Shown piece by piece: positions 2,195-57,246 of a stretch of DNA of 64,000 nucleotides (positions within the stretch are counted from its first letter, which is position 1; every line of letters starts with the position of its first letter). The DNA lies in the NCBI GenBank assembly GCA_016186395.1, contig JACPLU010000003.1, positions 11,883-75,882 on the forward strand. Direction: 5' to 3'. The notes under the pieces were generated by a model. It did no database searches and was not told the DNA's origin. It saw only the letters and a program-made list of their open reading frames with translations. A program made the position numbers and the translations under genes. The stretch is from Parcubacteria group bacterium. GTDB lineage: Bacteria; Patescibacteriota; Minisyncoccia; 2-02-FULL-40-12.

Positions 2195-2241
2195 CTGGAG
2201 CCCGAAGCGCCAGTCAATGACGGCAATAACCATAATTGTCC

Positions 2242-3200: not shown

Positions 3201-3473
3201 ATTAAGAAGTTCCGGAGCGCATGAAAAGCGGAACCACTGGAGGACTGTCTCAGCCACTGGCCCGGTGAAAATGCAATGTCAGTAAAGATGCTGACTACCC
3301 GCACCAAGACGGAAAGACCCCGGAAGCTTTACTGTCTCTTGGTATTGGTCTATGAGTTTGGATGCGTAGTGTAGTGGGTAGGATTTGAAGTCCACCTTTT
3401 GGGGTGGATGGATCCAACAATGAAACACCCATCTTTCAGATTTATAGCTCTAACTGGTGACACCCTAGAAGGA

Positions 3474-3780
3474 AAATTTATAAGGAGGAGATTCTATAAT
3501 GCTATTTGAAGGTTCTCCTAGCCCAACATTTGAAGAAGAAGAAAAGTTTGGATTTAATCTATCAACAAAAATTTATGTTCATATTAATTCACCTCTTTTA
3601 GGTGAAAATGGTAATAAGATAGAAAAGAAATTTGGTGTATTAATCCATCTTTTAACTGGAAAACACGCGAGATTCAAATTAGCTGATCAATTTCGAGTAT
3701 ATGGAAGTGCGGCTAATGTGATAAAATTTTTGAGTAGTTATTTTCAATAAATTTCCTTTTGACAAGCTAGTCTTGTCTCT
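3474..3780. other. Third helix-tip insertion in 23S (domain V helix-78/79 region) carrying a sense-strand gene cassette
   Basis: Bounded by ccctagaa (3464-3471) and ttctaggg (3781-3788). Conserved sequence resumes at caggacagtgcctggtggacagtttgaatggggcg. Confidence 0.6.
3499..3750 (+). CDS. 83-aa protein of unknown function inside the 23S insertion
   Basis: RBS aaggaggag 9 nt upstream of ATG. Hairpin gacaagctagtcttgtc immediately after the stop. Confidence 0.45.
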   Translation: MLFEGSPSPTFEEEEKFGFNLSTKIYVHINSPLLGENGNKIEKKFGVLIHLLTGKHARFKLADQFRVYGSAANVIKFLSSYFQ

Positions 3781-4148
3781 TTCTAGGGTTTCATCAGGAC
3801 AGTGCCTGGTGGACAGTTTGAATGGGGCGTTTCCCTCCTAAAGAGTAACGGAGGGGTCCATAAGGTACCCTAGTCCCGGATGGAAATCGGGACGATAGTG
3901 TAAAAGCATAAGGGTGCTTGACTGCAAGGCAAACGTGCCGCGCAGGTGCGAAAGCAGGGTTTAGTGAACCGACCGTGGCTGGTAGGAGCGCGGAAGATTA
4001 TCGGATAAAAGCTACTCCGGGGATAACAGGCTAGTACCGCCCGAGCGTCCATAGCGACGGCGGTGTTCGGCACCTCGATGTCGGCTCGGCTTATCCTGGC
4101 GGTGAAGAAGCTGCCAAGGGTTGGGCTGTTCGCCCATTAAAAAGCTAC

Positions 4149-4621
4149 GCGAGCTGGGTTCAGACCGTTAAGAATCTGAATCATAAATCATGAAACTTGA
4201 AACATCTTGTTTCGGTTTGATTTGGTTTTTTAACAGTCTGAATCCGAGGATATTCAAAAGACATCATTTAACGGCGGCACTATATAGGAATATATAGTGT
4301 GAAGTTGACCATATCGGTGAAATCCCATTGGGATAACACCTAGGGAAGTTTGTAAACTTTATTGAAGTTCTTTTTTGGGAGGTGTAGCTCAAGAGTATTG
4401 TATGATGAAAGGCGAAAGTCGGGGACTCATACAGTAGCGAGAGCACTGGACTCTGGATCCAGAGGTTGCAGGTAAAAATCCTATCACCACCCACCAATTT
4501 TTGAGTAATCAATATTTGGCACTTCAATAAAGTTTACAAATCCCGTAGAGACTATACGTCAGCCACCCTAATTGAGCTTAGCTCAGCGGGTGAAGATATA
4601 GTCCAGTGCATACAGCAATGT
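4149..4621 (+). mobile_element. ORF-less group I intron in 23S at the I-CreI/I-CeuI-type site (around E. coli 2593)
   Basis: Exon gggttcagaccgt | intron | cgtgagacaggttggtcc matches E. coli GGGUUUAGAACGU|CGUGAGACAGUUCGGUCC. Core strands agactatacgtc and gaagatatagtcc are present and the intron ends in G. The only ORF in it (4264-4527, minus strand) looks spurious. Confidence 0.7.
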
Positions 4622-4693
4622 ATGAAACATGCGTGAGACAGGTTGGTCCTTATCTGGTGTGGGCGTTAAGACTTGAGGGGAGCTGCTCCTAGT

Positions 4694-5437
4694 AGAATTT
4701 GCTACTTTAAGGAGTAATCCTTAATGACAATCCGACTTATAACGGTGGAACCTTATTGCAACTTGATTTGTTGATAACCAGAATTATCCTAATCCAATAA
4801 TTCTGGTACAATTTACTTGAGGACAAGATAGTAATAAGACAATACCGTGGGAAGTCATTCTAAAAACGATTTAGCATATATTTCCGGTTTTCTTGATGGA
4901 GACGGAAGTTTAATGTTGCAGATCAAAAAGTATAAGTACAATAAGTCAGGAAAAAGATTCATGGTAACTATTTGTTTCTATCAGGATTCAAGACACGACA
5001 AACCTCTTTATTGGATCCGTAAGATATTCGGGATAGGGTATATATCTAAAAGAAATGACGGTATTACTGAATTAAGAATAAATGGATATTCTAGAGTAAG
5101 AATAATTTTAGAAAAACTATTGCCGTTTATTAAGTTTAAGAAGAAGCAAGCAAGAATTCTTTATAAAGCGAGTAAATTACTCGAAAAAGAAAAAAAACTT
5201 AAAAAGACTTCCATGATTCGACTCGTAGATTACATAGTAAGAATCCAAGAGGAAAATTATGTGACAAGAAAAAAGAGATCGAAAGATGATTTATTAAAAT
5301 TTTTAGGATTGACCCCGTAACGACTCATCTTTAAAATAGATGGATGGCTGTTTTTAAACAGTCATAATATGTCGGCTCCCATCTTTGTCGATGGGATGAA
5401 GATATAGTCTACTCTTCTGGTGACAGAAGAAAATGTG
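4694..5437 (+). mobile_element. Group I intron in 23S inserted within the sarcin-ricin loop, carrying a LAGLIDADG ORF
   Basis: Joining exons cctagt + acgagaggattgg recreates CUAGUACGAGAGGA. The 5' exon ends in U and the intron ends in G. Core strands taatatgtcgg and gaagatatagtct are present. Confidence 0.65.
4847..5320 (+). CDS. LAGLIDADG homing endonuclease (157 aa)
   Basis: LAYISGFLDGDGSL is a LAGLIDADG motif; the ORF is intron-encoded. Confidence 0.8.
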   Translation: MGSHSKNDLAYISGFLDGDGSLMLQIKKYKYNKSGKRFMVTICFYQDSRHDKPLYWIRKIFGIGYISKRNDGITELRINGYSRVRIILEKLLPFIKFKKKQARILYKASKLLEKEKKLKKTSMIRLVDYIVRIQEENYVTRKKRSKDDLLKFLGLTP

Positions 5438-5517
5438 ACGAGAGGATTGGAGTGGGGAAACCTCTGGCGTACCAGTAGTCCTGCCAAGGGCGTCGCTGGG
5501 TATCTATGTTTCCAAGT

Positions 5518-5548
<31 letters not shown>

Positions 5549-5703
5549 ATGCCCCAAGATTAGGTCTTTCTCTCCTGGAAGACTACCAGGTTGATAGGAT
5601 TCAGGTGTAAGCGCGGCAACGCGTTCAGCCGAGAATTACTAATAGAGAAACAATTTATTTTACCTTTTTTATAAATTCACCGAATACATAGTTTAAGAAT
5701 TGA

Positions 5704-5834
5704 AAAGACTAATTTGGCGATAATGCCGAGTGTGTCCCACCTCTGGTTTGTTTACAAGCCTTAATCCATTCCGAACAGAGAAGTGAAATCACTCAGGGCC
5801 GATGGTAGTTCGAGCTTAGCTCGAGCCAGAGTAG
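5704..5834 (+). rRNA. rrf: 5S rRNA, with a roughly 17-nt expansion in the helix III / loop B region
   Basis: Carries the 5S blocks gtcccacct, ccattccgaacagagaagtgaaa and ggccgatggtag, and ends in agagtaggtcgtcgccag. It lies about 55 bp after the 23S end. Confidence 0.7.
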
Positions 5835-6014
5835 GTCGTCGCCAGATTAGTCTTTTTAATTTGCTCTGTCACCAGGTCCAGCATAGCCACGCACCTTTTG
5901 TAAAACAAAAGGTGCGAGAGTACAAAAAATTAGTGCTGGGCTCCCTGTCCTGTCCGGCAGGCGGGGATGCGGGGCTTCTTGCAATAAAACAGATATTCGC
6001 GGTACGATTGAAGC

Positions 6015-18568: not shown

Positions 18569-19651
18569 TTATTCGTTAAGCCAGAACCAAAATTGATTTT
18601 TAAGTTTCTGAGACAATTTATATGAATCAGCGTGGCTCAAAACACCGAGATATGATTGCAAGGATTGTTCGAGGGTTTCATTTGTTATAACTCCCGATTT
18701 ATACTCCGCAATTTTTTTATTTAATTTTTTAAATATCCGTTGTCTTGTTTTAGCTCTAAGAATTCGATAATGAGGGAAAACTATATACCCGAGAAAATCT
18801 ATTCCCCGTTGAAATTTATTGATAGAAATCTTTTTTGGATGAATTTCCAGTTGTAGTCTTTGCCTTAGGAAAGAACTTATTTTTGGGATTAATCCTGATA
18901 GGTAATCACGACTGTCAGAAACTATGGTAAAGTCATCGGTATAACGGCAATAATATTTCACTTTTAAATCATGTTTAATAAACTGATCAGATTCGTTCAT
19001 ATAGATGTTTGCGAAAAGCTGTGAGGTTAAATTGCCTATTGGTAGACCCTTTCTGGCGAATAAATTTGAGCAAGAAGACAGAAAACTTCTGATAACCTTT
19101 TCAAGTAGCCAGATGGTATCTGTGTCTCGAATCCGTTTCTTCAGTATAGAAATCAAAATTTTATGATCTACCGCATCAAAAAACTTTTTAACATCACATT
19201 TAAGAATGAAGCAAGGTTTCGTTCCATTGCCGGATACTTTTCTGGTCATCTGTTCAAGGACGCGGATTCCTTTGTGGCTTCCGAATCCAACCCGACAAGA
19301 AAAAGAATTTTGAATGAATGTTTGTTCAAAAATCGGATTGGCTACCGAAAAGATGGCATGATGCAAAATTCTATCCCGAACCGTGGCTTTGTGGATATGC
19401 CTTTGTTTTGGGTCTCGGATGTAGAAACCAGTATATTGTCCGTGTTCATAAGTCTTATTCTGAAGTTCTCGACGAAGTTTAAAAATATTTTCTTCAAGAC
19501 AAAATTCAAATCTTTGAACATCAACTTTATTCCTCTTGTCGCTTTTGAAAGTATCCCACGCTGAAAATAGGTTTTCCAGCGAGATTATTTTATTAAACAA
19601 GTTTTTATAGGTTTTCATAATAAAATTAAATGAACGAATTCGATACCCCAA
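18569..19651 (-). CDS. Diversity-generating retroelement reverse transcriptase
   Basis: RT motifs are present: KCDVKKFFDAVDH (motif A), LPIGNLTSQLFANIYMN, where the [I/L]GxxxSQ form is typical of DGR RTs rather than the group II intron QGxxxSP, and YCRYTDDF (YxDD). The length of about 350 aa fits. The true start is probably MKTYKN at 19618. Confidence 0.85.
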   Translation of the reverse strand: MGYRIRSFNFIMKTYKNLFNKIISLENLFSAWDTFKSDKRNKVDVQRFEFCLEENIFKLRRELQNKTYEHGQYTGFYIRDPKQRHIHKATVRDRILHHAIFSVANPIFEQTFIQNSFSCRVGFGSHKGIRVLEQMTRKVSGNGTKPCFILKCDVKKFFDAVDHKILISILKKRIRDTDTIWLLEKVIRSFLSSCSNLFARKGLPIGNLTSQLFANIYMNESDQFIKHDLKVKYYCRYTDDFTIVSDSRDYLSGLIPKISSFLRQRLQLEIHPKKISINKFQRGIDFLGYIVFPHYRILRAKTRQRIFKKLNKKIAEYKSGVITNETLEQSLQSYLGVLSHADSYKLSQKLKNQFWFWLNE

Positions 19652-19977
19652 TATTTATAAAATCCTACGATTTATACAAGCTATTTTATAGTTTCCGTAC
19701 CCTGGTTCCCAAAAATGACCGCTACACAATCTGGCAAAGGTGCGAAAATTTAATGCTGGATATAATCGATGGAATTCTATATGCCAGCCAAATTTCAAAA
19801 ATTGAGAAACTCCCGATTCTTGAAAAAACAAGCATGAAGTTAAGTCTCCTGCGTGTTTTTGTTCGGCTTATGAAAGATACCAAAGCGATAGATAATAAGA
19901 AATACGTATCACTCGAAACCATTATCGACGAAATTGGCCGTCAGCTTGGAGGCTGGATAAAATCAACTAAAGGATAA
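19630..19977 (+). CDS. avd: DGR accessory variability determinant (Avd-like four-helix-bundle protein)
   Basis: 115 aa. The C-terminus IDEIGRQLGGWIKSTKG resembles Bordetella phage Avd IAEVGRILGSWIARVNRKG, and the N-terminal region VPKNDRYTIWQRCEN resembles IPRKHGVAREMFLKC. Transcribed divergently from the RT. Confidence 0.65.
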   Translation: MNEFDTPIFIKSYDLYKLFYSFRTLVPKNDRYTIWQRCENLMLDIIDGILYASQISKIEKLPILEKTSMKLSLLRVFVRLMKDTKAIDNKKYVSLETIIDEIGRQLGGWIKSTKG

Positions 19978-20023
19978 CAGAATACCCGCCAACTGGCGGG
20001 TATTCTTAATGAGGAGCGACTTC

Positions 20024-20148
20024 GAAAGGAACCCAGACGCGGAGCCATAGTTGTCGTTCGGGTTGCTTACGTCGTTCGTGTTGAACTTGACCTTGTCGTC
20101 GTTGAAGTTGAAGTACGGCGCGCTGCTGAACCTGCCATCAGCGTCTGG
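20024..20148 (-). repeat. DGR template repeat (TR)
   Basis: 125 bp homologous to 20620-20744. All 15 mismatches are T on plus (A on the coding/minus strand) in this copy. The translated frame is Asn-rich (NFNDDKVKFNTNDVSNPNDNY), typical of AAC-rich TRs. The 70-aa ORF 19963-20175 is therefore not a gene. Confidence 0.85.
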
Positions 20149-20613
20149 AAATTGCTTTTGCCCATCTATAGTCACCGGATATCGAGGCTTGCCACCTTAA
20201 CGGTCTATATCCTCTCAATCCTGAATTTTATTCGGGAGCATCTCGCAAAAGAATCTCCGCTGGGCGGAAGCAAGCAGTAGTCTCCTCAATTTGGCACTCT
20301 CGGAGAATCCGTGAACGCTCCGACTCTGGCCGTTTGATCTCTTTTTTGAAGAGAGAGTTCGGTGACGGCAATCCGAGAGCGATTCTAGTCGGGCTAAAGC
20401 GCCGACTAAGAAACTTCGCCCAGATAAACTGCCGTTCATTAACCTAAGCTCACAGGAAGTATACAAATAATCCAATTAAAAGTGAATATATAAAAAGAAA
20501 AAGAGGGCCACCCACGATGGAACTGTGGATAACCCTCTCAAAAATTTCGCCGAACTCAAGGATCAAGAAACAACGAATCAAAAGATCCAAGTGTTCGAGC
20601 GATCAAGGCCCTA

Positions 20614-21471
20614 CTACTGCGAAAGGAACCCAGACGCGGAGCCAAAGCTGTCGTCCGGGTCGCTCACGCCGTACGCGTTGAACTTGACCCTGACGTCGTC
20701 GAAGAGGAAGTACGGCGCGCTGCCGAACCTGCCATCAGCGCCTGGACTGTACTCATCGCCTGGGCAGTCGATGTGCAACTGTTCCCATTGAATGAGCCGT
20801 TCCGGATGAGACAGAAGCATGCAGTCGACGATGAACGAGCCGAGCCCGAACTCGTGAGGAGCATAGACCACGCGCATCCTTCGCACGGACCGACCCCGAT
20901 GGGTCAGGCCGAACTGGGCTGGGATCAGTAGAAAGTCGCCCTTCTGCTTTTCGCCGATCATCTGGAGCGCGACGGCTGTCCGTTCGGAGAGCCGCAGGTA
21001 TTTCGGGCCGAGCGCGCCTTTGCGGTAGTTGTGGAAGGTGCGGGTCTTTCCGATCAGGTCGAGAACCTTCTCGACAGCCTCGTTGTACGAGGACGCAACC
21101 TTCTCCCACCGCGGAACGGCGAACCAGCCTTCCGCGCCAGCGGGCAGAGCCGGAAGCTCCTTGGAGCAGGCCAGCACCGAACTGGTGTTGAGACCGTTGA
21201 AGTGCTTGGAGAGCTCCACGAGCTGTTCGCAGACCGGCTTCACGGCGTACCCTTGCGGATAGCCGTAGTTGGACTTCACCTCTTCGTTGGCGAAGAACGG
21301 ACTCGCCGTGACGAGAGGTGCCGAGGTCACTTCCTTCTCCTCGACGATGGACTGCAGGTTCCTGGCGACGAAACTCGGCTCGAGCGTCCCTTCCATGAGG
21401 CGGCGCTGGACTTCCCACATGCGGCGGGAAATCGTTCCGAGAGTGTCGTCTGCGACGATGTGAGTCGTCAT
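20614..21471 (-). CDS. DGR target (variable) protein, 285 aa, with a C-terminal VR-encoded ligand-binding region
   Basis: Good RBS aaggagg upstream of the start. The C-terminal 40 aa (...PGADGRFGSAPYFLFDDVRVKFNAYGVSDPDDSFGSASGFLSQ) is paralogous to the TR translation. About 58% GC, unlike the surrounding sequence. No signal peptide was detected. Confidence 0.8.
   Translation of the reverse strand: MTTHIVADDTLGTISRRMWEVQRRLMEGTLEPSFVARNLQSIVEEKEVTSAPLVTASPFFANEEVKSNYGYPQGYAVKPVCEQLVELSKHFNGLNTSSVLACSKELPALPAGAEGWFAVPRWEKVASSYNEAVEKVLDLIGKTRTFHNYRKGALGPKYLRLSERTAVALQMIGEKQKGDFLLIPAQFGLTHRGRSVRRMRVVYAPHEFGLGSFIVDCMLLSHPERLIQWEQLHIDCPGDEYSPGADGRFGSAPYFLFDDVRVKFNAYGVSDPDDSFGSASGFLSQ
20620..20744 (-). 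repeat. DGR variable repeat (VR) at the 3' end of the target gene
   Basis: Matches the TR except at template-adenine positions. It ends 4 nt from the target stop codon. The GC-rich 3' end ctccgcgtctgggttcctttc is conserved between TR and VR (IMH-like). Confidence 0.85.
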
Positions 21472-24421: not shown

Positions 24422-24915
24422 AGTCCAGTATTAGAACCCAGTAGTAGAGTAAAACTCACTACCGGACTTTGCTTCGACAGTATAAGAAGCGAACGAAGTG
24501 AGCGTAGTCCAGCACTAAACAAAGTTTTAGTGCTGGATTTCAGCTGGGCATGTCGTCTCCAGATAATAGCAAATTAGATGTGGATTCGTCAACTTACTGT
24601 GTGCCTTTCCACATCTGCCTTTCCACATCGGGTGTGGAAAGGCGTTGGGATAGGGAGTAATCGTTAATGAGGTACTTGCGTCGAGATTTGATGTGATTTT
24701 CGACATCGCAAGTCGAAGAGGTTTTGTTTGCGGTGTCTTACGACATTCAATGTCGTAAGAGTAAGAAATTTATGAGTTTTGACGATTCAAGACTGTGAAT
24801 TGGATCTCTAGCGGGGGTTGATCCCTAACGGGATCAACCCCCGCCCTTAAGTTTAAGAGTGGGGTTGATAATAGATTTTGGAATTCTTGAGTTTTGGTAT
24901 ATTATCACAAATACT

Positions 24916-26766
24916 ATGTGTGGCATTTTTGGTTTTGTTAGTAAAAAGCCTGTTACTGGTATAGGTAATATGCTCCAAGCTTTAAAAAAGCTTGAATATA
25001 GGGGTTATGACTCTACTGGTATCGCTGTTGTAACCCAGAAGGGAATTTATAGTCAAAAAAAAGCCGGCCGAATAAGCAAGTTGGAACCATTTTTAGATAA
25101 AAAAGTTTTAGGCTCCGTTTTTATTGGCCACACTCGTTGGGCAACTCATGGAAAGCCTTCCGATAAAAATGCTCATCCACATTTTGGATGCGATAATAAA
25201 ATTCAAATAGTACACAATGGAATAATAGAAAACTATAAATCTTTGAAGCATGAATTAGAAGGTCGTGGTCATCGTTTTAAATCCGATACCGATAGTGAAG
25301 TTTTTGCTCATTTAGTAGAAGAGTTTCTGGGACGTAAAAACGGATCTGAAATAAGATATTTCGAAGAAGCAGTAAGATTATCTTTAAAAAGAATTAAGGG
25401 GGCCTATGCCTTTGCCGTTATTCATCAAAATTATCCTAAAGTTATAATTGTAGCAAAAAATTCAAGTCCATTATTAATTGGATTAAGCGATCAGGCTAAA
25501 TACATTGCTTCAGACCCCATAGCCTTACTTCGTCATACTCGTAAGGTCATTTATCTTAATGATCAAGAGTTGGCTATTGTTACCCCAGATCAATTAAAGA
25601 TTTCAACTCTCCAGAATAAAGAGATATTAAGAAAATATCAAGAAGTTAGTTGGTCTGAGGATGCAGTCAGGAAAACTGGATTTACTCATTTCATGGAAAA
25701 AGAAATTTTTGAGGAGCCGGAGGCTGTAGAAAATGCTATTAGAGGCCGGTTGATCGTTTCTCAGGGTTTGGCAAAGTTGGGAGGATTAGAATCTGTACGC
25801 CAAAAATTAGAAAGTGTTAAAAGGTTGATTATAACTGCTTGCGGTACAGCTTTTTTTTCTGGTTTAGTTGGAGAGTACATGTTGGAAGAGTTTGCGGGTC
25901 TGCCAGTAGAGGTTGAGAGCGGTTCGGAGTTGCGCTATAAAAGATCTCCGTTTGATGATAAAAGTGCTTTGTTGGCTGTAAGCCAATCAGGAGAGACTGC
26001 CGATACTCTCGGCTCTATTAAGGAAATAAAAAAAACAGGTCTTTTAACGCTGGGGTTGGTAAATACAGTGGGTTCTTCTATTGCTAGGGAGACAAATGCC
26101 GGAGTTTATAATCATGCAGGACCAGAAATTAGCGTTGCCTCTACCAAAGTTTTTATTTCTCAATTAGCAGTTTTTGCTTTACTGACTTTATTTTTAGGCC
26201 GTCAAAGATCTATGAGTAAAAATATGGGCAAACTTATAGCCTCTGAGCTGACTTTGATACCAAGAAAGTTGAGAACTATATTAGAAAGTTCTGTCTATAT
26301 TAAACGTGTGGCTCGAAAATACTTTAAATATAATAACTTTTTATTTTTAGGTAGAAAATTTAATTATCCTATTGCACTTGAGGGAGCCTTGAAATTAAAA
26401 GAGGTATCCTACATTCATGCTGAAGGATATGGAGCGGGGGATATGAAACATGGACCGTTGGCTTTGATAGATGAGAATTTTCCATCTATAGTAATTGCTC
26501 CAAAAGACAGTGTATACGATAAAGTAGTTAGTAACATGGAGGAACTAAAAGCTCGGAAGGGTAAAATAATCATCATAACTACTAGCGGAAATAAAGGACT
26601 TGATAAATTAGCGGATGAGGTTTTGTATATTCCTAAAACGATTGAAATGCTTACTCCGCTTTTGACAGTGATGCCGTTACATCTCTTGGCATATTACATG
26701 GGAGTTTTTAGAGGTCACGATGTAGATAAGCCACGTAATCTTGCTAAATCAGTAACGGTGGAATAA
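24916..26766 (+). CDS. glmS: Glutamine--fructose-6-phosphate aminotransferase
   Basis: MCGIFGF N-terminal nucleophile followed by two SIS domains. The start is set at the Cys-2 ATG (24916), not the upstream ORF start. Confidence 0.95.
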   Translation: MCGIFGFVSKKPVTGIGNMLQALKKLEYRGYDSTGIAVVTQKGIYSQKKAGRISKLEPFLDKKVLGSVFIGHTRWATHGKPSDKNAHPHFGCDNKIQIVHNGIIENYKSLKHELEGRGHRFKSDTDSEVFAHLVEEFLGRKNGSEIRYFEEAVRLSLKRIKGAYAFAVIHQNYPKVIIVAKNSSPLLIGLSDQAKYIASDPIALLRHTRKVIYLNDQELAIVTPDQLKISTLQNKEILRKYQEVSWSEDAVRKTGFTHFMEKEIFEEPEAVENAIRGRLIVSQGLAKLGGLESVRQKLESVKRLIITACGTAFFSGLVGEYMLEEFAGLPVEVESGSELRYKRSPFDDKSALLAVSQSGETADTLGSIKEIKKTGLLTLGLVNTVGSSIARETNAGVYNHAGPEISVASTKVFISQLAVFALLTLFLGRQRSMSKNMGKLIASELTLIPRKLRTILESSVYIKRVARKYFKYNNFLFLGRKFNYPIALEGALKLKEVSYIHAEGYGAGDMKHGPLALIDENFPSIVIAPKDSVYDKVVSNMEELKARKGKIIIITTSGNKGLDKLADEVLYIPKTIEMLTPLLTVMPLHLLAYYMGVFRGHDVDKPRNLAKSVTVE

Positions 26767-30602: not shown

Positions 30603-30851
30603 AATTAAAAAGTTAAAAATTAAAACTCAAAATTACAAATGAAAAATCAAAAGTTATTTTTCTTATATTTATTATAGTATTTTCTGGGATAATTTACATT
30701 TGACAGAATTGTTTATTCTTTTTCGACAATGTGGAAGCGTGGCGGCTTGGTGTCGGGCTAAAAGCCTGACCGCCGCGCTGGAACGTTAGCGAGCATATCG
30801 CTGGAATATGCGAGCGTGTCGGAAAAGTATAAACGATTCTGGAAGTTAAAG

Positions 30852-32880: not shown

Positions 32881-32962
32881 TGCCGATGGTGGGATTTGAA
32901 CCCACAAGCCTTACGGCACATACTTCTGAAGTATGCATGTTTGCCAGTTTCATCACATCGGC
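32881..32962 (-). tRNA. tRNA-Leu (anticodon CAG)
   Basis: Cloverleaf: acceptor GCCGATG/CATCGGC, anticodon stem CATAC/GTATG with loop TTCAGAA, long variable arm GCCGTAAGGC, T-arm GTGGG TTCAAAT CCCAC. No encoded CCA. Confidence 0.8.
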
Positions 32963-32970: not shown

Positions 32971-33131
32971 CTGGCGGGCAGGTCTGTCAGCCTGCCCCGT
33001 ACCGAGCTTTGCTCTGGTGCGGGGTTCCGCCATCTGCCCGCCAGCGGAATGAGGATTAATCTGCCAACCTGCCCCGCACCGAACTTTGCTCTGGTGTGGG
33101 GTTCCGCCATGGGGGCAGGAGCTTTTTGGGT
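32971..33131. repeat. Tandem duplicated GC-rich structured element (2 units of about 45-75 bp) next to tRNA-Leu
   Basis: cctgccccgtaccgagctttgctctggtgcggggttccgccat and cctgccccgcaccgaactttgctctggtgtggggttccgccat. Unit 1 is closed by an 11-bp perfect stem, ctggcgggcag/ctgcccgccag. Unit 2 ends in a hairpin followed by agcttttt. Confidence 0.6.
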
Positions 33132-38151: not shown

Positions 38152-39102
38152 GTGTTAAGCGAAAGAGCAAAATTATTGCTTTCTAATATTGTGTATCGGA
38201 GTTTGTTTGGCGTTTTTTTTACATACGAACAAATAGAGTCAGTGGGACTTAAGGATGCGCTGACGGAACTTTTTGAAAAAAAAATAATCAGAGAATGCAT
38301 GTTTCATGAAAAAAGATTTATAGTACTTGTTGAACATGAGAAAGAATTGGAAAATTTCTTGGCCATGCGGAAAGTTGCGGAACAGAAAAAGGGGACCCTG
38401 ATAAAATATTTAAAATTTTTTCGTATTTCTCCCTTTATCAGAGCGGTCTTTATAAGTGGGTCATTAACTTTAGGCAGAGTAGAGGACGATAGTGACCTTG
38501 ATGTTTTTGTTTTGACTGCACCCGACCGAATTTGGACAGCCAGATTTTTACTTTCAGCTATTCTCTCATTATTTGGAATTCGTAGAACGAAATTTGAATC
38601 TATTGCTCCCAATAAAATTTGTTTGAGTCATTATATGACTACAAATGCATTGTTTGATTATGAAAGTATTTTTACCGCTCAAGTTCTGGGAAATTTAGAG
38701 CTTTTGTGGGAAGCAAAACCAGAAATTGGCAAGACTTTTGTCAGAAAACATAAATGGCTTCGAAAGTATCTATTAATAAGCCCTAATGAGTTATTGGAAA
38801 AACAAGTTAATAAAATAGGTCAAAGTTTGGTTCAAAAAATAGGGGAATGGTTTTTAAACGGGTGGTTTGGGTCAATCATTGAATGGTTTTTAAGAATTAT
38901 TCAGTTAAGGAGGATAAAAAATGATCCCAAAACTCTACGTCCCAATGGCAGAATAGTAGCAACAGATCAAATGCTCGAATTTCATCCTGATTCAAAAGAG
39001 GGGGAAGTAATCAGGGACTACAATTTGGCTATGAAAAAACTCGGATTTCCCGAGTTTGCGAATGAGAGGAGTTCTAAGATGGAAGTAGTGATTAGTAACT
39101 AA
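38152..39102 (+). CDS. Hypothetical nucleotidyltransferase-fold protein
   Basis: ISGSLTLGRVEDDSDLDVFV resembles the pol-beta-superfamily NTase GS...D.D motif. Confidence 0.45.
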   Translation: MLSERAKLLLSNIVYRSLFGVFFTYEQIESVGLKDALTELFEKKIIRECMFHEKRFIVLVEHEKELENFLAMRKVAEQKKGTLIKYLKFFRISPFIRAVFISGSLTLGRVEDDSDLDVFVLTAPDRIWTARFLLSAILSLFGIRRTKFESIAPNKICLSHYMTTNALFDYESIFTAQVLGNLELLWEAKPEIGKTFVRKHKWLRKYLLISPNELLEKQVNKIGQSLVQKIGEWFLNGWFGSIIEWFLRIIQLRRIKNDPKTLRPNGRIVATDQMLEFHPDSKEGEVIRDYNLAMKKLGFPEFANERSSKMEVVISN

Positions 39103-41287
39103 GAATCAATAGGCCCGTTTTTGTACCTACAAAAAGGCGTTCATTTTCTGTGGTCATACTTAATGGCGCACTGGTAAGATTGAAAAGGTAAAAAAATCTG
39201 AATATAATTGAATTTGTTGAGTCGAAGAATATCAATCCGTTTTCTCCTCTAACTATGGAACTTAGCTCACTAACTCGATGGCTAAATATGCCAACTCGGT
39301 TATCGACTATTGTATTTGTGCCGCAAGATCCGGAGATACCCTTAATCAGTGAGGGATTTCTCGGGTCACTAACATTAAATACTTCTAAACCGGTTTCATC
39401 CAGAGAAGTAAAACAGGTACTGCTGTAAAGAAGGTCTCTGTTTACGGAAAGGTTATTAATATAACCATTTCCAAAGAACGTTTTTATCGTTTTAATGCTT
39501 CTTGGGTTGGATATATCAGCTATTCCAATTCCTGTTTGGCCTGATACAAAGAAAAGCAGGTTTCCAGAAATATGCGGATGATCCACTCCATATGACCCCG
39601 GTCCATAATAGGTATAAACTCTTTTAAGGTTGTAGGGGTCTGAGATATCAATTACTTCAATAGATGCTGATACAGCCACGAAAATCAGATTATCTTTTCT
39701 GGCGAATGCTTTAGCTCCTCCCCAATAAGATGAACGGATACTTCCTGTCAATCTTGGATTATATGGATCCCTGACATCGTAGGCGCTAAACCCTTCTTCC
39801 GGTCCTATTGCATACAGATATCCATTATGAAATAACAGCCCGTTAATTCTACTGTAATCTTTGGCTCCAATTCTACTGATTATAAATGTTTGATTTGGGT
39901 CGGAAGTATCTAGGGTCAATATTCCATAGGCCTTATAGGGATAATTAGTATATCCGACAAAAGCATAGTTTCCATTAACGGCAATGGCAGATACGGATAA
40001 ACCCGTCCATTCCCCAAGAAACTTTGGAGTATTTGGTGAGGTCTCACCAATCAGATCTTTTTTGATAGAATCAAAAATGCTTAATCCGTTTTCACAAATT
40101 TTACTCATGTTTTCATGAAGATCTATGTGGTCACAGTTGGGGCAAGCTACTGTTTTTGAGACTAGGTGTCCGGCGAATGATGCGCTTGCGACAGGTACCA
40201 TGCCGTCATTTCGTTCATAGTGGTTTCTGTTTTTGTATAGGCCATAATTTAAAGCTATACTGCCACAAACTAACTTTTTGTGGTCGTCTTCGGCTTTTAA
40301 AATTTGTCCGATAAGAACCTTAGGTCCGGCCAGCGGGCTTAACGAATAGATTTTATCAACTATGGTTCTATATTCATCACTACGGGTATCTATAACTCCG
40401 TAATAAGCGGTTATTTTGGAATCATAAAGAGTGCCCGAATTTAATTCTTTAAGCCACAAGTTCATGTCAGGGTTATTTTCATCCATGACATGGTCAAAGT
40501 TGTCCCACAGAAGGTCTTTTCTATTTGGTTCGGTGTATTCGATTCTTTCCCAGTCATGAGTCCAGAAAAATAACGATCCTGCTTTAATTACACTAACCCA
40601 ATTATTAAATAAATTTTCTGCTGTCCAGTAACGTTGGTAATCAGAATCTCGTGTATCGGCATTTTTAGCTAAGTCGTTTCTCGAATCACGATTTGTACCC
40701 GGTGAACCATGGTGTGGTGTGCCAAGAGTAATAAGTTTTGTTCTTTCTCCACCGCGCTGATTTTTATAATTTCCATATAGATGAGAATGCTGTTGCATGT
40801 AAGATCGCGCAACAAGTCCTCCCATACTGTGAGCAATGATTACAAATTCGTTGTCGTTTATAAATCTTTTAGCTATTGCGTTGTCAAGTTTATTTCTTAA
40901 ACTTCGGGCGATTTCCCAAACATTTTGTTGATCGCTTAGATAAACAAAGCGATAAGGTTTATATTTTTCTTTGAGATCCTGATCGTTTTCAAAGTTATAA
41001 ATAAAATTATCCCATCCGGATAACTGTTCGCCTGCTTCTTGTTCATCCAGTAAGCCATCTTTATTAAACTCTTTAGTCGCATGGATACCATGAATTAAAA
41101 TAAGAGGGATTTTTTGATCATTTACAACTTCGTTTTTATTGTACGGATAGTTTACTAATTGGGTTATGCCGTCAGCCGGACTCGGATCAAAGCTGCTAAA
41201 ACTATCGGTAAAACCATGGGTTTGGAGTCCAGATCCAAGAAAAGATCCTATCAAAATAATTGATAGAACAAATTTAGGTATTCCCAT
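39092..41287 (-). CDS. Secreted two-domain protein: N-terminal alpha/beta-hydrolase (PGAP1/DUF676-like lipase-esterase) and C-terminal LVIVD-repeat beta-propeller
   Basis: Signal peptide MGIPKFVLSIILIGSFLGSG. IIAHSMGGLV (GxSxG) and GTPHHGSPG. Repeated ...D(I/V)SDP.NP... propeller blades. Confidence 0.55.
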   Translation of the reverse strand: MGIPKFVLSIILIGSFLGSGLQTHGFTDSFSSFDPSPADGITQLVNYPYNKNEVVNDQKIPLILIHGIHATKEFNKDGLLDEQEAGEQLSGWDNFIYNFENDQDLKEKYKPYRFVYLSDQQNVWEIARSLRNKLDNAIAKRFINDNEFVIIAHSMGGLVARSYMQQHSHLYGNYKNQRGGERTKLITLGTPHHGSPGTNRDSRNDLAKNADTRDSDYQRYWTAENLFNNWVSVIKAGSLFFWTHDWERIEYTEPNRKDLLWDNFDHVMDENNPDMNLWLKELNSGTLYDSKITAYYGVIDTRSDEYRTIVDKIYSLSPLAGPKVLIGQILKAEDDHKKLVCGSIALNYGLYKNRNHYERNDGMVPVASASFAGHLVSKTVACPNCDHIDLHENMSKICENGLSIFDSIKKDLIGETSPNTPKFLGEWTGLSVSAIAVNGNYAFVGYTNYPYKAYGILTLDTSDPNQTFIISRIGAKDYSRINGLLFHNGYLYAIGPEEGFSAYDVRDPYNPRLTGSIRSSYWGGAKAFARKDNLIFVAVSASIEVIDISDPYNLKRVYTYYGPGSYGVDHPHISGNLLFFVSGQTGIGIADISNPRSIKTIKTFFGNGYINNLSVNRDLLYSSTCFTSLDETGLEVFNVSDPRNPSLIKGISGSCGTNTIVDNRVGIFSHRVSELSSIVRGENGLIFFDSTNSIIFRFFYLFNLTSAPLSMTTENERLFVGTKTGLLILSY

Positions 41288-41368: not shown

Positions 41369-41517
41369 TGTATAAATACTCTTTCTCTTTCTTCGCAAAC
41401 CCCAGCGTGGTTTGCTCAGGGGTTGAGCCCTTCGCTCTTACCCCCATCTGATTTAATATCAGGTGGGGATAAACCATGCCCGCTATGGGCTCAAAACCCG
41501 TTCAAGAGTATTTATAC
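41369..41517. mobile_element. MITE-like element, copy 1 (149 bp), with 15-bp terminal inverted repeats
   Basis: TIRs tgtataaatactctt / aagagtatttataca. Internal conserved blocks are shared with 54558-54741: ctttcttcgc, ctcaggggttgagccctt, catgcccgctatgggctcaaaacccgttcaagagtat. Confidence 0.65.
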
Positions 41518-41536: not shown

Positions 41537-41794
41537 TTATTTCTTATTAATCAGTTTCATCAACCGCGATTTTTTTCTTGCGGCAGCTTTTTTGTGTAGA
41601 TATGTTTTAGAGCTTTTGTCTATTGCTTTATAGGCTTTGGGAACTAAAGCTTTAGCTTCTTCTTTTTTGCCCGCTAAAACTAGTTTTTTGATTTCTTTTA
41701 CAACGTCTTTAACCGCCTCTTTTCTTTTGAGGTTTATTCTATTTTTTCTTTTTGATTGTCTAAGCGCTTTTATAGCTGATCGAGTGTTTGGCAT
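41537..41794 (-). CDS. rpsT: 30S ribosomal protein S20
   Basis: MPNTRSAIKALRQSKRKNRINLKRK is a typical S20 N-terminus. Confidence 0.85.
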   Translation of the reverse strand: MPNTRSAIKALRQSKRKNRINLKRKEAVKDVVKEIKKLVLAGKKEEAKALVPKAYKAIDKSSKTYLHKKAAARKKSRLMKLINKK

Positions 41795-50014: not shown

Positions 50015-50497
50015 ATGTCTCTTAATCCTGTAAAACTTATTAAGAAGGAGCCGGTAAAGAAATTTGAGATAATTGAAGAATCTCCTAATTTAAAGATTAA
50101 GGTTTTTGGCAGATCGCCAAGAGAAATTTTTCACAACGCTCTTTACACTATGGCTTACATCCAAAGTCCTTCTCTTATTGAACCATCTACAGTCGATAAA
50201 CTCATAAGCGCGTTTAGAGGCAAGAAATTAGCTGAAGAAATAGTCATTGACGGTATGGATTATCAGACTCTACTTATTGATTTTCTTGAGCAAGCCTTGG
50301 AGCTTTCCGACGAAAAAAACTTTTTATTTTTTGAGCCGAAATTTAATGAGTTCTCTGAACAAAAATTAGTAGGCAGACTAATTGGGGTAAAATTTGAGAA
50401 TCTTGAAAGGCCAATTAAAGATATCAATTATGAAAATATAGACGTAAAAGAAGTAGAGCCAGGGAAATGGGAAGCGATAATTGTTTTTGAACTTTAA
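50015..50497 (+). CDS. Hypothetical protein, possibly archease-like
   Basis: FEIIEESPNLKIKVFGRSPREIFHNALYTMAY loosely resembles the archease N-terminus (YE.LDHTADVGI...G.SLEE.F.NAA.AM). Confidence 0.3.
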   Translation: MSLNPVKLIKKEPVKKFEIIEESPNLKIKVFGRSPREIFHNALYTMAYIQSPSLIEPSTVDKLISAFRGKKLAEEIVIDGMDYQTLLIDFLEQALELSDEKNFLFFEPKFNEFSEQKLVGRLIGVKFENLERPIKDINYENIDVKEVEPGKWEAIIVFEL

Positions 50498-53836: not shown

Positions 53837-54541
53837 GTGAAAAAACTTCAAAACGTAAACCTGCCAGCAGCAAAACTTCCAGTTTATAAGGAGACAGAAG
53901 ATTTTAGGTCTTCAATGCACTGGAGGGTTTTTAGAATATTGGCAGAATTCATTGAAGGTTTCGGGTTTATTGCTGACTTTAAAAAGTCGGTCACAATTTT
54001 TGGATCAACTAGAACTTCGGAAGATAATCATTGGTACAAAGAAGCGGAGAAGTTGGGGAAGTCTTTGGCTGAAGAAGGTTTTGCTGTAGTAACCGGAGGA
54101 GGGCCGGGAATTATGGAAGCCGTTAATAAGGGAGCAGCTGAAGGAGATGGAAATTCAGTAGGACTAAATATTCAACTACCCCACGAACAACGTACAAATC
54201 CCTATGTAAATAAACCTAAGGGGTTCCACTATTTTTTTACCCGTAAATTAATGCTTACATATTCTGCTCAAGCTTATGTTTATTTTCCTGGTGGATTTGG
54301 CACTCTTGATGAGTTTTTTGAAATTACAACTCTGATTCAAGAGAAAAAGATTTTTAGTCATATCCCGGTGATTCTGGTGGGTAAAGAGTATTGGTCCCGG
54401 TTAACCGAGTGGATAGACCAGGAACTTTACCAAAAACACAGGACTATAGATAAAGAAGATATGGGAATTTATACTATAGTTGATACGGCTGAAGAAGCTC
54501 TGGCAATAATTAAACAGTCGAAACCCAGGGATGAATTTTAA
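53837..54541 (+). CDS. LOG family protein (cytokinin riboside 5'-monophosphate phosphoribohydrolase-like)
   Basis: VTGGGPGIMEA and PGGFGTLDE motifs. Confidence 0.85.
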   Translation: MKKLQNVNLPAAKLPVYKETEDFRSSMHWRVFRILAEFIEGFGFIADFKKSVTIFGSTRTSEDNHWYKEAEKLGKSLAEEGFAVVTGGGPGIMEAVNKGAAEGDGNSVGLNIQLPHEQRTNPYVNKPKGFHYFFTRKLMLTYSAQAYVYFPGGFGTLDEFFEITTLIQEKKIFSHIPVILVGKEYWSRLTEWIDQELYQKHRTIDKEDMGIYTIVDTAEEALAIIKQSKPRDEF

Positions 54542-54557
54542 TTTTTTAGAATTTTTG

Positions 54558-54741
54558 GTGAATAATACTCTTTTTCTTTCTTCGCCCCCACCTATACAGA
54601 TGGGGGCTCAGGGGTTGAGCCCTTGCGCCACCGCTAAAGCTAAGGCGGCACGCGGTCGCTCTTTCCCAGCTCTTTCTAAAGAAAGAGCTGGGAAAACCAT
54701 GCCCACTACGGGCTCAAAACCCGTTCAAGAGTATTATTCAC
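54558..54741. mobile_element. MITE-like element, copy 2 (184 bp), with perfect 15-bp TIRs
   Basis: gtgaataatactctt / aagagtattattcac. Shares internal blocks with 41369-41517. Contains the extra hairpin cccagctctttctaaagaaagagctggg. ORF 54531-54818 lies within it and is spurious. Confidence 0.65.
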
Positions 54742-54831
54742 CCAGTTTATTTACAGAACCTCCTTTCCATCTTGACTCAGATATTTATCAATTATATAAT
54801 ATATACAAAATTTTGTAATTAAATTTTAAAT

Positions 54832-57246
54832 ATGTCTAATAAACCTCAAAATACTCAAAATCAAATTCCTTCGGAGTTGCCTATAATTGCTTTGAAAAAC
54901 GTAGTTTTGTTTCCGCGTATTATAATTCCACTTGTTGTTCAAAGACCAAAATCAACAGCGGCACTAATCGAAGCTCAAAGCAGAAATGACAATCTGGCAG
55001 TTTTCGTTACTCAAAAGGAAATCGGAAACGAAGATGAAGTAAGTGTTGATCAGTTATATAAAGTTGCAACAGTGGGCAAGATTCTTAGTGTTATAAATAT
55101 GCGGGATGGCTCTAAAAGAATAGACGTAGAGGGCGTAAGCAGAGTAAGGATTAAAGAGCTTTTTGAATCCGAACCATATTTAAAAGCTCAAATAGAACCT
55201 ATTTCGGTAAAGATTCCGGAGTTCACGGTTGAACTAGAGGGTTTAATGAGAAGTATAATTGACCTTTTTAAACATGTTATGGCAGAAATGGGCCGACTGT
55301 TACCGGCTGATTTATATATGTTATTGCGTCAAGTTAAGGATCCAGATCAACTAATTGATCTTATTATAGTTAATCTCGGAATTGATATTCCAGAACAGCA
55401 GGAGTTGCTTGAGACAACTGACATACAAGAGGTTTTAAAAAGGGTTCATAATATTTTGTTGAGAGAACGCGAAATTATAGATGCGGAAAAGAAAGTTGCT
55501 TCAGAAACAAGAAAGCGCCTTGGCAAGATGCAGAGGGAGGCATTTTTAAGAGAGCAGATGAAAACTATTGAACAGGAACTTGGTATTGAGGGGGAAAAAG
55601 GAGAAATGGAGCTTTACCGTAAAAAGATAGAACAGGCAAAGATGCCAGAGGAGATTAGGACTAAGGCTTTAAAAGAATTAAGTCGTTTAGAAAAGATGCC
55701 AAGTTTTGCGCCGGAGGTTTCCTATATTCGTACTTATCTGGATTGGTTAGTGGAGTTGCCTTGGTCAAAAAAAACAGAAAGTTCAATTGATATAAAGAAA
55801 GCCGAGAAAATTTTAGAAGAAGACCATTATGGTTTAGAAAAAGTGAAAGAAAGGATTTTAGAGTATCTTGCCGTGCAAAAACAAGTTGGTAAAATGAAAG
55901 GACCAATTTTATGTTTCGTTGGTCCTCCGGGAGTTGGTAAAACTTCTATTGGTAAATCTATTGCAAGGGCTTTGGGTAGGAAGTTCCACCGTATTTCATT
56001 GGGAGGGATAAGAGACGAGGCCGAAATTAGGGGGCATCGCAGAACCTATGTTGGAGCATTACCAGGGAGAATTATTCAAGGTATACATGTAGCCGGGACC
56101 AAGAATCCAGTTTTCATGTTAGATGAAATTGATAAAATAGGAGTTGACTTTAGAGGTGATCCGTCCGCCGCTTTGCTTGAGGCTTTAGATCCGGAACAAA
56201 ATTTTGCTTTTTCTGATCATTACCTTGAAGTTCCGTTTGATTTGTCAGACGTAATATTTATTACAACAGCTAATGTTTTAGATACGATTCCATATGCTTT
56301 GAGGGATAGGTTAGAAATTATAGAATTTCGTGGATACACCGAAGAAGAAAAAGTTCAGATTGTAAATAAGTTTTTAGTGCCGAAACTTAAACAAGAACAT
56401 GGAATCAAACAATCTTTATTGTTTGAAGACAAGGCTCTAAGAGATATTGTAAGGAAATATACAACAGAGGCAGGTGTACGTGATGTTGAGCGTCAGTTGG
56501 CAAAAATATTAAGAAAAATTGTAAGAGAATTAATTGAAAGTGGAAAAAGTAATAGAAAGATTAAAGTGGCACTTAAGGATTTAAAAAAATATTTAGGTCC
56601 GGAAAAGTATTTACAACAATTAAATGAGAAACAGGATCAAATAGGGGTTGCAACCGGTCTTGCTTGGACACCAGTAGGCGGACAATTAATGTCTATTGAA
56701 GCAATGAAAATGCCAGGTAGGGGAAGACTAACTTTGACCGGCCGTTTGGGTAAAACGATGCAAGAATCGGCAATGGCTGCTTTAAGTTACGCACGCGCTA
56801 AAGCAACAAGGTTTGGACTAAAAGAGGACTTTTATAAACAAGATATACATTTGCATGTACCTTCTGGTGGAATTCCTAAGGATGGTCCTTCGGCGGGTAT
56901 TGCTATGGCTACCGCCTTGATTTCTTTACTTTTGGGAGTCAAAATACATAAGGAGGTTGGAATGACTGGGGAGGTAACCTTAAGAGGTAAGGTTTTGGAG
57001 ATAGGTGGATTAAAAGAAAAGATTCTTGCTGCTCACCGAGCGGGATTGAAGAAGGTTATTATCCCGAGAGATAACGAACGAGATTTAGAAGAGCTACCAA
57101 AAGAAGTTAGAGATAATCTTGAATTTAAAATGGTAGAAAGTATGGACGAAGTTTTAGAAGTCGCATTAAAATGGCCAACTTCAAAGTCTTCAGTGATCAG
57201 TCCAAGTAGGTTGGCTGGTGTTGGGGGACAGGCGCCTACGGCGTAG
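54832..57246 (+). CDS. lon: ATP-dependent protease Lon
   Basis: N-terminal LON domain, GPPGVGKTS AAA+ P-loop, and catalytic PKDGPSAGIAMATAL (Ser-Lys dyad). Confidence 0.95.
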   Translation: MSNKPQNTQNQIPSELPIIALKNVVLFPRIIIPLVVQRPKSTAALIEAQSRNDNLAVFVTQKEIGNEDEVSVDQLYKVATVGKILSVINMRDGSKRIDVEGVSRVRIKELFESEPYLKAQIEPISVKIPEFTVELEGLMRSIIDLFKHVMAEMGRLLPADLYMLLRQVKDPDQLIDLIIVNLGIDIPEQQELLETTDIQEVLKRVHNILLREREIIDAEKKVASETRKRLGKMQREAFLREQMKTIEQELGIEGEKGEMELYRKKIEQAKMPEEIRTKALKELSRLEKMPSFAPEVSYIRTYLDWLVELPWSKKTESSIDIKKAEKILEEDHYGLEKVKERILEYLAVQKQVGKMKGPILCFVGPPGVGKTSIGKSIARALGRKFHRISLGGIRDEAEIRGHRRTYVGALPGRIIQGIHVAGTKNPVFMLDEIDKIGVDFRGDPSAALLEALDPEQNFAFSDHYLEVPFDLSDVIFITTANVLDTIPYALRDRLEIIEFRGYTEEEKVQIVNKFLVPKLKQEHGIKQSLLFEDKALRDIVRKYTTEAGVRDVERQLAKILRKIVRELIESGKSNRKIKVALKDLKKYLGPEKYLQQLNEKQDQIGVATGLAWTPVGGQLMSIEAMKMPGRGRLTLTGRLGKTMQESAMAALSYARAKATRFGLKEDFYKQDIHLHVPSGGIPKDGPSAGIAMATALISLLLGVKIHKEVGMTGEVTLRGKVLEIGGLKEKILAAHRAGLKKVIIPRDNERDLEELPKEVRDNLEFKMVESMDEVLEVALKWPTSKSSVISPSRLAGVGGQAPTA

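Follow-up and report, generated by a model that had tools for sequence, protein, structure and literature searches.

Genomic Context of the Two Copies

The analyzed DNA is a contiguous stretch of 64 kb, referred to here as the window. Its GC content is 38%, and it includes a 23S rRNA gene with insertions and a 5S rRNA gene with an insertion. The Pfam scan of 42 ORFs in the window revealed housekeeping genes. The Lon protein encoded in the window reaches no more than 67% identity in the protein collection, where the named matches are from Patescibacteria/Parcubacteria; thus, the window is assigned to a poorly sampled CPR lineage. An archease gene is located at 50015–50497.

Two intergenic sequences in the window are copies of an uncatalogued multi-hairpin palindromic repeat family of about 140 bases from ultra-small Patescibacteria. 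Copy 1 is flanked by a PGAP1/esterase-like gene (39092–41287, −) and rpsT (41537–41794, −). It lies 19 nt past the stop codon of rpsT, on the opposite strand, and precedes a terminator-like hairpin. Copy 2 is flanked by a LOG-like gene (53837–54541, +) and lon (54832–57246, +), and starts 15 nt past the stop codon of the LOG-like gene on the strand of that gene. These contexts are as given in an earlier note on this DNA, which placed the copies upstream of lon and in the spacer between a lipase-like gene and rpsT. The components of both copies and one possible distant relative are shown below; P1 to P4 designate the helices, and type A is the form to which both copies belong.

41370–41517, +: copy 1, whole element, type A, 148 bp; covariance model score 131.7 bits
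41370–41383, +: copy 1, 5′ arm of P1 (the left TIR of the earlier note); perfect 14-bp complement of 41504–41517
41384–41394, +: copy 1, pyrimidine-rich junction J1/2, TCTCTTTCTTC; mean identity 0.82 among 14 copies
41395–41415, +: copy 1, hairpin P2 with the conserved loop CCAGCGT
41419–41430, +: copy 1, 5′ strand of the long-range helix P3, GGGGTTGAGCCC; partner 41487–41499
41442–41468, +: copy 1, variable hairpin P4; unrelated in sequence to P4 of copy 2, still pairs
41469–41486, +: copy 1, junction ATAAACCATGCCCGCTAT, conserved across copies
41487–41499, +: copy 1, 3′ strand of P3, GGGCTCAAAACCC, with an AA bulge
41504–41517, +: copy 1, 3′ arm of P1 (the right TIR of the earlier note)
54557–54742, +: copy 2, whole element, type A with an extra hairpin, 186 bp; covariance model score 108.6 bits
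54557–54572, +: copy 2, 5′ arm of P1; perfect 16-bp complement of 54727–54742
54584–54607, +: copy 2, hairpin P2 with the stem GCCCCCA/TGGGGGC; stem and loop both unlike copy 1
54611–54622, +: copy 2, 5′ strand of P3
54625–54655, +: copy 2, extra hairpin, 31 nt; missing from every other copy
54664–54693, +: copy 2, variable hairpin P4 with a perfect 14-bp stem
54710–54722, +: copy 2, 3′ strand of P3
54727–54742, +: copy 2, 3′ arm of P1
30723–30823, −: possible distant relative, GC-rich and multi-hairpin, in the spacer between an aminoacyl-tRNA synthetase gene and the RNase J gene

The arms of copy 1 are a perfect 14-bp inverted repeat (GTATAAATACTCTT / AAGAGTATTTATAC), and those of copy 2 a perfect 16-bp inverted repeat (GGTGAATAATACTCTT / AAGAGTATTATTCACC). 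The blocks CTCAGGGGTTGAGCCCTT and GGGCTCAAAACCCGTTCAAGAGTA occur twice each in the window with up to 3 mismatches tolerated, while 0.02 and 0.00 occurrences are expected by chance. In the pairwise alignment the core blocks are 100% identical between the copies. Two internal hairpins are wholly different in sequence, with pairing retained. The outer halves of the "TIRs" also differ between the copies and yet are complementary within each copy; only the inner 9 bp are common to both. The two copies, the shared blocks and the hairpins described in the earlier note are all present, at 41370–41517 and 54557–54742. The extra hairpin of copy 2 is real as well, at 31 nt instead of the 35 reported.

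Both profile search and covariance-model search counted two type A copies in the window and found no third. The candidate relative at 30723–30823 includes a hairpin with the CCAGCG loop of the family at 30793–30811, and it gave no match to the covariance model (R1) described below. The similarity between copies 1 and 2 stops exactly at the arm ends and the flanking genes are unrelated; therefore, the copies are not a segmental duplication, the alternative that the earlier note had named. Chance similarity or a local segmental duplication would fit the presence of only two copies in the window. However, the chance expectation is about zero, the flanks are not duplicated, and 14 distinct copies, many in other contigs, were found in unrelated contexts, so that the probability left to this explanation is negligible.

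Three other assignments were considered for these loci and rejected. The first is a conserved leader of lon. A strong promoter-like site for lon is located at 54772–54800, downstream of copy 2, which places copy 2 in the tail of the LOG transcript and not in the lon leader. The spacer between LOG and lon in relatives is either 39 nt or an unrelated 278 nt; the relative with the 39-nt spacer has the same gene order and lacks the element. The second is an intrinsic terminator: the element has a T-run at its start and an A-run at its end on either strand, and on neither is the stem followed by a U-run. The third concerns the diversity-generating retroelement that is also present in the window. 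Copies 1 and 2 show no differences at adenines, and thus they are not a template/variable repeat pair.

Distribution of the Family

Further members were sought in several ways. A metagenome pattern scan using the two halves of P3 as a two-block pattern yielded 13 loci, of which 12 were true members and 10 were distinct. The covariance model R1, built from 12 copies, recovered two divergent copies at 28–35 bits and 14 distinct type A copies at 108–150 bits, the latter including a second copy in contig L018 that the exact pattern had overlooked. Further copies of a sister form, designated type B, and a remnant with an internal deletion were found by way of the protein that hosts the in-gene copies. 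The recovered set consists of 14 distinct type A copies, 5 type B copies and 1 deletion remnant, every one on a Patescibacteria contig. The search for more copies that the earlier note had proposed was thus productive. A further variant is located at about 60–230 on the contig of a relative (L008). The density reaches three copies in the 12.4-kb contig L018, compared with two in the 64-kb window.

Types A and B have in common the P2 loop CCAGCGA, the block GCCC-TCGCTC, the hairpin P4 and the block ACCATGCCCGCT(T)CGGGC. The GC content of the element is 46–58% in genomes of 36–39% GC. The core is near-identical even between lineages in which Lon shares no more than 67% identity with that of the window. 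The family is non-autonomous, GC-rich and about 135–190 bp long, and is dispersed in AT-rich genomes of Paceibacteria-type Patescibacteria.

Searches in other collections returned no additional members. With Rfam release 15, the window gave only rRNA and tRNA at the gathering score, and both copies as well as typical type A and B members gave only noise at E-values up to 10; the suggestion that the internal region might resemble a known sRNA or riboswitch was therefore not borne out by this release. A scan of genome contigs with GCCCNCTANGGGCTCAAAACCC, a pattern that fixed the loop length of the window copies, gave two chance matches in high-GC coding sequence. Pattern scans and blastn against viral, phage and plasmid collections gave one chance match, in a phage terminase gene, and no copy of the element.

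At the protein level, a concatenated query of all open frames of the element matched four proteins, all of them Wzy_C proteins, and an exhaustive search with the copy 1 peptide matched four unrelated repeat proteins only; the power of such searches is weak for short peptides, and the peptide of the element is not conserved. Exact look-up of the rpsT protein returned only contigs shorter than 2 kb that break inside the element, and exact look-up of the LOG protein returned no record. In the literature, no earlier description was found with the core sequences or with repeat-element terms combined with CPR names.

The Conserved Fold and the Nature of the Ends

Each copy was shown to fold into one conserved four-helix architecture. 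P1 is the closing stem of 13–22 perfect, AT-rich pairs, with a 5′ T-run and a 3′ A-run. From 5′ to 3′, the consensus continues from the P1 arm with the junction UC(R)CUUUCYUCG, P2, the junction CUCA, the 5′ strand of P3, the junction UYCGCUC, P4, the junction ACCAUGCCCGCUUC, the 3′ strand of P3, the junction GYUC and the 3′ arm of P1. P2 has 6–7 co-varying pairs and a conserved 7-nt loop, CCAGCGN. P3 is a long-range helix in which GGGUUGAGCCC pairs with GGGCUCAA-AA-CCC. P4 is a hairpin variable in both sequence and length. The GCCC of the conserved junction of copy 1 could also pair with GGGC at 41487–41490, and this alternative 4-bp hairpin is invariant across copies.

The helices are supported by covariation. 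In the model-fitted alignment, which leans towards the model, is small and was partly ascertained through P3, 95.9% of cells are paired and both sides change in 35 of 39 pairs. None of 500 shuffles matched the observed pairing, and slid registers pair at most 51%. RNAalifold independently predicted the same helices together with a 2-bp extension, which is A-U in 7 copies versus G-C in 6. All 16 pairs of P1 change on both sides, and such changes are seen within one genome too. In P3, one compensatory change from G-C to A-U is present in the second L018 copy.

Sequence conservation falls mainly in the loops and unpaired junctions. The identity between copies is 0.72–0.90 in unpaired regions versus 0.48–0.61 in the stems P1, P2 and P4 (0.53 in P1); the figure for P3 is too high, its sequence having been fixed by the search pattern. 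About 45 unpaired nucleotides are conserved in the element, and the outermost bases are its least conserved part. Co-varying arms around a conserved interior indicate that the "TIRs" are a closing helix rather than conserved termini.

This result bears on the MITE reading of the earlier note. Its descriptive part was confirmed: the element is small, non-coding and dispersed, with inverted ends and internal hairpins. The part that implies TIRs recognized by the transposase of a DDE-type insertion sequence was not. A classical MITE would be an internally deleted derivative of an insertion sequence with a DDE transposase, mobilized in trans via its TIRs. The small size, non-coding nature and multiple copies of the element, its perfectly inverted termini of 14–22 bp, and the breaking of short-read contigs inside it, as at repeats, are all compatible with such an origin. 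However, the termini differ even within one genome and co-vary. Copies in the same genome have identical cores and unrelated hairpins, unlike recently transposed MITEs. Target-site duplications were sought, as the earlier note had advised, and neither a direct repeat nor a conserved target motif was found at any of the 12 copies examined. No transposase or integrase was detected in the Pfam scan of the 42 window ORFs, in agreement with the earlier note, and neither an insertion sequence nor a transposase was found in the window or at any fetched locus. Because conserved TIRs and target-site duplications, two of the defining features of a MITE, were both looked for and both found lacking, the MITE reading is regarded as improbable.

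Insertion Sites

Intergenic copies begin between −7 and +40 nt from the upstream stop codon inside operons and nearly fill the spacer. Among the eight intergenic type A copies whose neighbors are readable, seven lie just past the stop codon of a gene in the same direction, and these seven are therefore expected to be co-transcribed with it.

The other copies lie inside genes of only two protein families, in permissive loops of membrane proteins. The reading frame is open through the element in genes for Wzy_C proteins (the O-antigen-ligase family) at L010, L018b, L013, L016, L023 and L025, and in a gene for a spermidine-synthase-like membrane protein at L015, where the element is opposite in orientation. 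Two of three frames are open on each strand of the element. The encoded peptide is not conserved, since a 1-bp change of stem length shifts the frame.

Alignment of 32 Wzy_C orthologs and comparison of their DNA showed that one loop carries varied insert states. Type A is present there in two different frames; type B is present as well, and in L028 it is inverted across its own arms. L027 has a remnant in which only the outer stem and 15 nt of 3′ core survive. Other orthologs have unclassified inserts or none. Hosts 77–86% identical in protein can differ in insert state. This is how a repeat behaves that can insert, invert, decay and be replaced, and not how a fixed regulatory site behaves. 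The cores are 96–100% identical among the orthologs versus about 75–80% for the surrounding coding DNA. The same Wzy_C genes also hold a second, smaller GC-rich hairpin insert.

The occurrence inside coding sequences raises the question of an intron-like intervening sequence that would be removed from transcripts, with P1 placing the two sites of splicing or cleavage side by side and an RNA ligase system rejoining the ends. The closing stem does juxtapose the two ends of the element, intervening sequences are present in the 23S and 5S rRNA genes of the same genome, and an archease gene is present in the window. However, the frame is continuous through the insert in every insert-bearing Wzy_C ortholog aligned, whatever its subtype, orientation or length, which a translated insert would predict and a spliced one would not; there is some ascertainment bias, as split genes would rank low in protein search. 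In addition, most copies are intergenic, and no signature of a group I or group II intron was found with Rfam. The intron-like reading is considered very improbable, because each aligned insert-bearing ortholog keeps a continuous frame.

Strand Preference and Orientation

A functional RNA acting from one strand normally tolerates G·U pairs and not A·C. Among 606 paired cells in the alignment, 570 are Watson–Crick, 11 are G·U on the + strand and 13 are A·C, which corresponds to G·U on the − strand. Type A by itself has 5 G·U and 11 A·C. Both mismatch types are rare, and the choice of strand from these counts is ambiguous. On neither strand do G·U pairs outnumber A·C, and this speaks against an RNA that acts from one strand only. 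Folding is about equally good for the two strands, whether they are taken as RNA or as DNA (z-scores from −6.5 to −10.8).

The orientation of the copies was compared with strand composition. GC skew is positive over the whole 64 kb except at 40–44 kb, where it is about zero, and it remains positive over most of the part with reversed genes. For 12 of the 14 type A copies, the strand that carries the + form is clearly G-rich, and the remaining two (L013 and L023) are at loci of near-zero skew. At both of these loci, the Wzy_C gene lies beside the dnaA region and is directed away from the putative origin. Gene direction and strand composition are at odds for copy 1 and the L015 copy, and both copies follow composition. 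Type B fits the orientation rule in only three of five copies. The orientation of type A is thus suggestive of tracking the G-rich strand, and it is only suggestive because the copies are few and gene orientation is a confounder for most of them: the majority of genes run in the direction of replication, and the two copies above are the only ones that separate the effects. The G-rich leading strand is the template of lagging-strand synthesis, and hence the strand that is transiently single-stranded. A replication-linked orientation bias involving the lagging-strand template has been reported for single-strand elements of the IS200/IS605 type (PMC5027513).

These observations have to be weighed against a primary function as structured RNA. 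In this explanation, the element would be an intercistronic or 3′-UTR cis element, such as an mRNA stabilizer, a processing site on P1 for a double-strand RNase or a protein-binding site, present in many copies because many operons use it; or it would be a new ribozyme- or riboswitch-like fold. The in-gene copies would be tolerated by-products. The conserved loops and junctions, the strong covariation of P1, P2 and P4 with one compensatory change in P3, a core more conserved than the host coding sequence and near-identical across lineages, the elevated GC content, and the expected co-transcription of seven of the eight intergenic type A copies with the upstream gene all agree with such a role. 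The mutually exclusive pairings of GGGC, in P3 or with GCCC, resemble a switch.

However, G·U is not in excess over A·C, and transcription of copy 1 and of the L015 copy would yield the strand opposite to that of the other copies. The element is inverted, deleted or absent at the orthologous site while the host gene is kept. No gene class is consistently associated with it, unlike a riboswitch, and it shows neither a stem followed by a U-run nor a match to an Rfam family. A primary RNA function is the less probable reading, but one to be taken seriously.

Comparison with Known Repeat Families

Rickettsia palindromic elements (RPEs) are similar to the family in being palindromes of about 100–150 bp without a transposase that occur both in intergenic regions and, very often, in frame within genes, where they add a peptide (PMC10969869). 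They also reside in small, AT-rich, reduced genomes and show vertically inherited orthologous insertions. The differences are that RPEs belong to Alphaproteobacteria and the present family to Patescibacteria, and that the family has a non-conserved encoded peptide and a conserved fold with fixed loops and junctions. RPEs and the REPINs described next are the nearest analogues of the family, which is counted as a member of neither; with RPEs the likeness is one of behavior.

REP and REPIN elements resemble the family in being non-autonomous, in having a functional hairpin maintained by paired changes, and in lying mostly just downstream of genes; they are mobilized in trans by RAYT, a single-copy nuclease of the HUH Y1 type (PMC3116915, PMC6006769). 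A REP is a simple imperfect palindrome of 20–40 nt whose 5′ GTAG is conserved, and a REPIN consists of two REPs in inverted orientation. In contrast, the family lacks the REP motif and has a four-helix junction in which neither half copies the other, and some of its copies lie inside genes. No RAYT or Y1_Tnp domain was found in the 42 window ORFs, and there was no tblastn match in about 380 kb of fetched DNA.

Derivatives of IS200/IS605 (PATEs), which belong with single-strand "peel and paste" transposition, share with the family the lack of target-site duplication, a dependence on folded single-stranded DNA that for the family is proposed, and the orientation bias tied to the lagging-strand template (PMC5027513). 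The ends of IS200/IS605 are two similar subterminal hairpins without a terminal inverted repeat, and insertion is 3′ of a fixed tetra- or pentanucleotide. In the family, by contrast, one end is the complement of the other, P2 has neither its stem nor its loop in common with P4, and the flanks have no common motif. A tblastn search of weak power over the same 380 kb of fetched DNA gave no match to an IS200-type TnpA.

The Correia, ERIC and RUP families of MITEs are likewise small intergenic repeats with inverted ends that are co-transcribed and whose ends can form double-stranded RNA. These families have conserved TIR sequences and target-site duplications (TA for Correia), whereas the family described here has neither. 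An integron attC site, a folded recombination site with conserved core boxes that flanks gene cassettes beside an integrase gene, was also considered and rejected on context: 13 kb separates the two copies, their neighbors are housekeeping genes, and the window ORFs scanned include no integrase.

No structured palindromic repeat is known to have been catalogued in the phylum Patescibacteria, and the fold described here is unusually complex and conserved.

Proposed Nature of the Element

The conserved loops and junctions, the high GC content, the conservation of the core and the regular position of the copies point towards a function at the level of nucleic acid. The reading judged just on the probable side is a non-autonomous, RPE/REPIN-like repeat that is handled as folded single-stranded DNA. 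The element would be recognized, propagated or maintained as a folded single strand on the lagging-strand template by an enzyme encoded elsewhere and acting in trans, with an HUH/Y1-type nuclease or something undescribed as candidates. The conserved unpaired nucleotides would form the recognition surface. The stems would need only to pair, and their Watson–Crick perfection on both strands may come from arm-to-arm templated repair or from selection. Co-transcribed copies probably double as stable structures between cistrons or at 3′ ends, in the manner of REP elements; the folded single-strand reading and a primary function of the RNA are not mutually exclusive.

Several observations stand against parts of this proposal. 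The combination of conserved unpaired nucleotides and co-varying stems is the classic mark of a functional RNA and speaks against handling as single-stranded DNA. The core evolves more slowly than the host gene, which is against a reading as purely selfish, decaying DNA. A further point is that no copy was seen in the phage, plasmid or viral collections, where a vehicle for spread between lineages might have been expected. Among the loci compared, there was no pair of filled and empty sites with exact boundaries that would record a transposition event.

A bolder proposal, offered tentatively and with considerable doubt, is that the family represents a new class of complex folded elements that occurs across Paceibacteria. 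It would be either a ribozyme or protein-binding RNA that has spread into operon spacers and loops within genes, or the recognition fold of an undescribed system that mobilizes single-stranded DNA at replication forks. If the latter were true, stems and hairpins would be rewritten by templated copying while the approximately 45 unpaired nucleotides stay fixed.

The genomes of Patescibacteria are among the smallest and most streamlined of bacteria, and the persistence of a 140-bp repeat in them is thus unexpected. The family adds a second, phylogenetically remote case of a "protein-coding palindrome" beside that of Rickettsia, and it accounts for some of the protein insertions and some of the assembly contig breaks in CPR bacteria. 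The defined fold, with its CCAGCGN loop, P3 and fixed junctions, is a handle for finding the recognizing enzyme or an RNA-binding partner. The element would also mark replichores in bacteria where origins are hard to call, provided that closed genomes bear out the replication-linked orientation.

Contig ends in the first copy of the palindromic element

Four short-read Logan contigs with an rpsT protein identical to that of the window (L003-L006, from runs SRR12113384 to SRR12113433) stop 17-98 nt past rpsT, and at least three of them terminate within copy 1 of the palindromic element. Contig ends inside copy 1 are as expected if the repeat breaks the assemblies of this organism.

Other hairpins and repeats

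A GC-rich multi-hairpin is located at 30723-30823 of the window, between RNase J and an aminoacyl-tRNA synthetase gene. Its hairpin at 30793-30811 (reverse strand) has the loop TCCAGCG, which matches the loop of P2, the family hairpin with the conserved loop CCAGCGN, and a second CCAGCG is also present. The region was not picked up by the covariance model of the family. It may be a distant relative of the element family. At 32983-33110, a 51-nt GC-rich hairpin unit occurs as two copies in tandem (90% identical, 77-nt spacing). The sequence of this unit is unrelated to the palindromic element. It adjoins the following gene:

32881-32962, reverse strand, tRNA-Leu

In L008, a contig from a relative (GCA_964364345.1), another palindromic element is observed at 60-230; its arms are long and paired, and one of its hairpins has the loop CCAGCGA. 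At 5712-5900 of the same contig, the LOG-lon spacer, which is 278 nt long here and harbors copy 2 in the window, holds a different direct repeat, taatctgccgatattgctc, twice.

A perfect 15-bp GC-rich hairpin (24811-24844) lies just upstream of 24951-25025, where ARAGORN calls a tRNA-Phe whose anticodon, AAA, is unusual. The tRNA call is probably false, because it falls within the start of a glmS-like ORF (24859-26766) and Rfam gives no confirmation.

Insertions in the rRNA genes

The rRNA region of the window (393-5847) contains insertions in the 23S and 5S genes. The 23S rRNA gene exceeds the model length by ~900 nt.

2705-3160, LAGLIDADG endonuclease ORF within the 23S rRNA gene
4847-5320, second LAGLIDADG ORF, between the 23S and 5S genes
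5713-5847, 5S rRNA gene with a 30-nt insertion

Diversity-generating retroelement

A complete diversity-generating retroelement is encoded at 18569-21471.

18569-19651, reverse strand, reverse transcriptase
19630-19977, forward strand, bAvd accessory gene
20019-20149, template repeat
20616-20746, variable repeat

The two repeats, 131 nt each, differ at 16 positions, and the template base is adenine at all 16. The variable repeat constitutes the 3' end of an ORF (20614-21471, reverse strand), for which the Pfam scan found no match. This ORF is a 61% GC island in a genome of 38% GC.

Small hairpin inserts in Wzy_C genes

The Wzy_C genes of L016, L023, and L028, which carry the element, include a second in-frame GC-rich hairpin insert, far smaller than the element (sequence CCAGCCCAAGGCTGG..., peptide PAQGWSASGG). 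It is found, for example, ~720-750 nt into the compared 1035-nt stretch, and at columns 333-366 of A4, the alignment of Wzy_C orthologs. Some orthologs have this insert and others lack it, which suggests that small hairpin inserts are more generally acquired in gene loops by these genomes.
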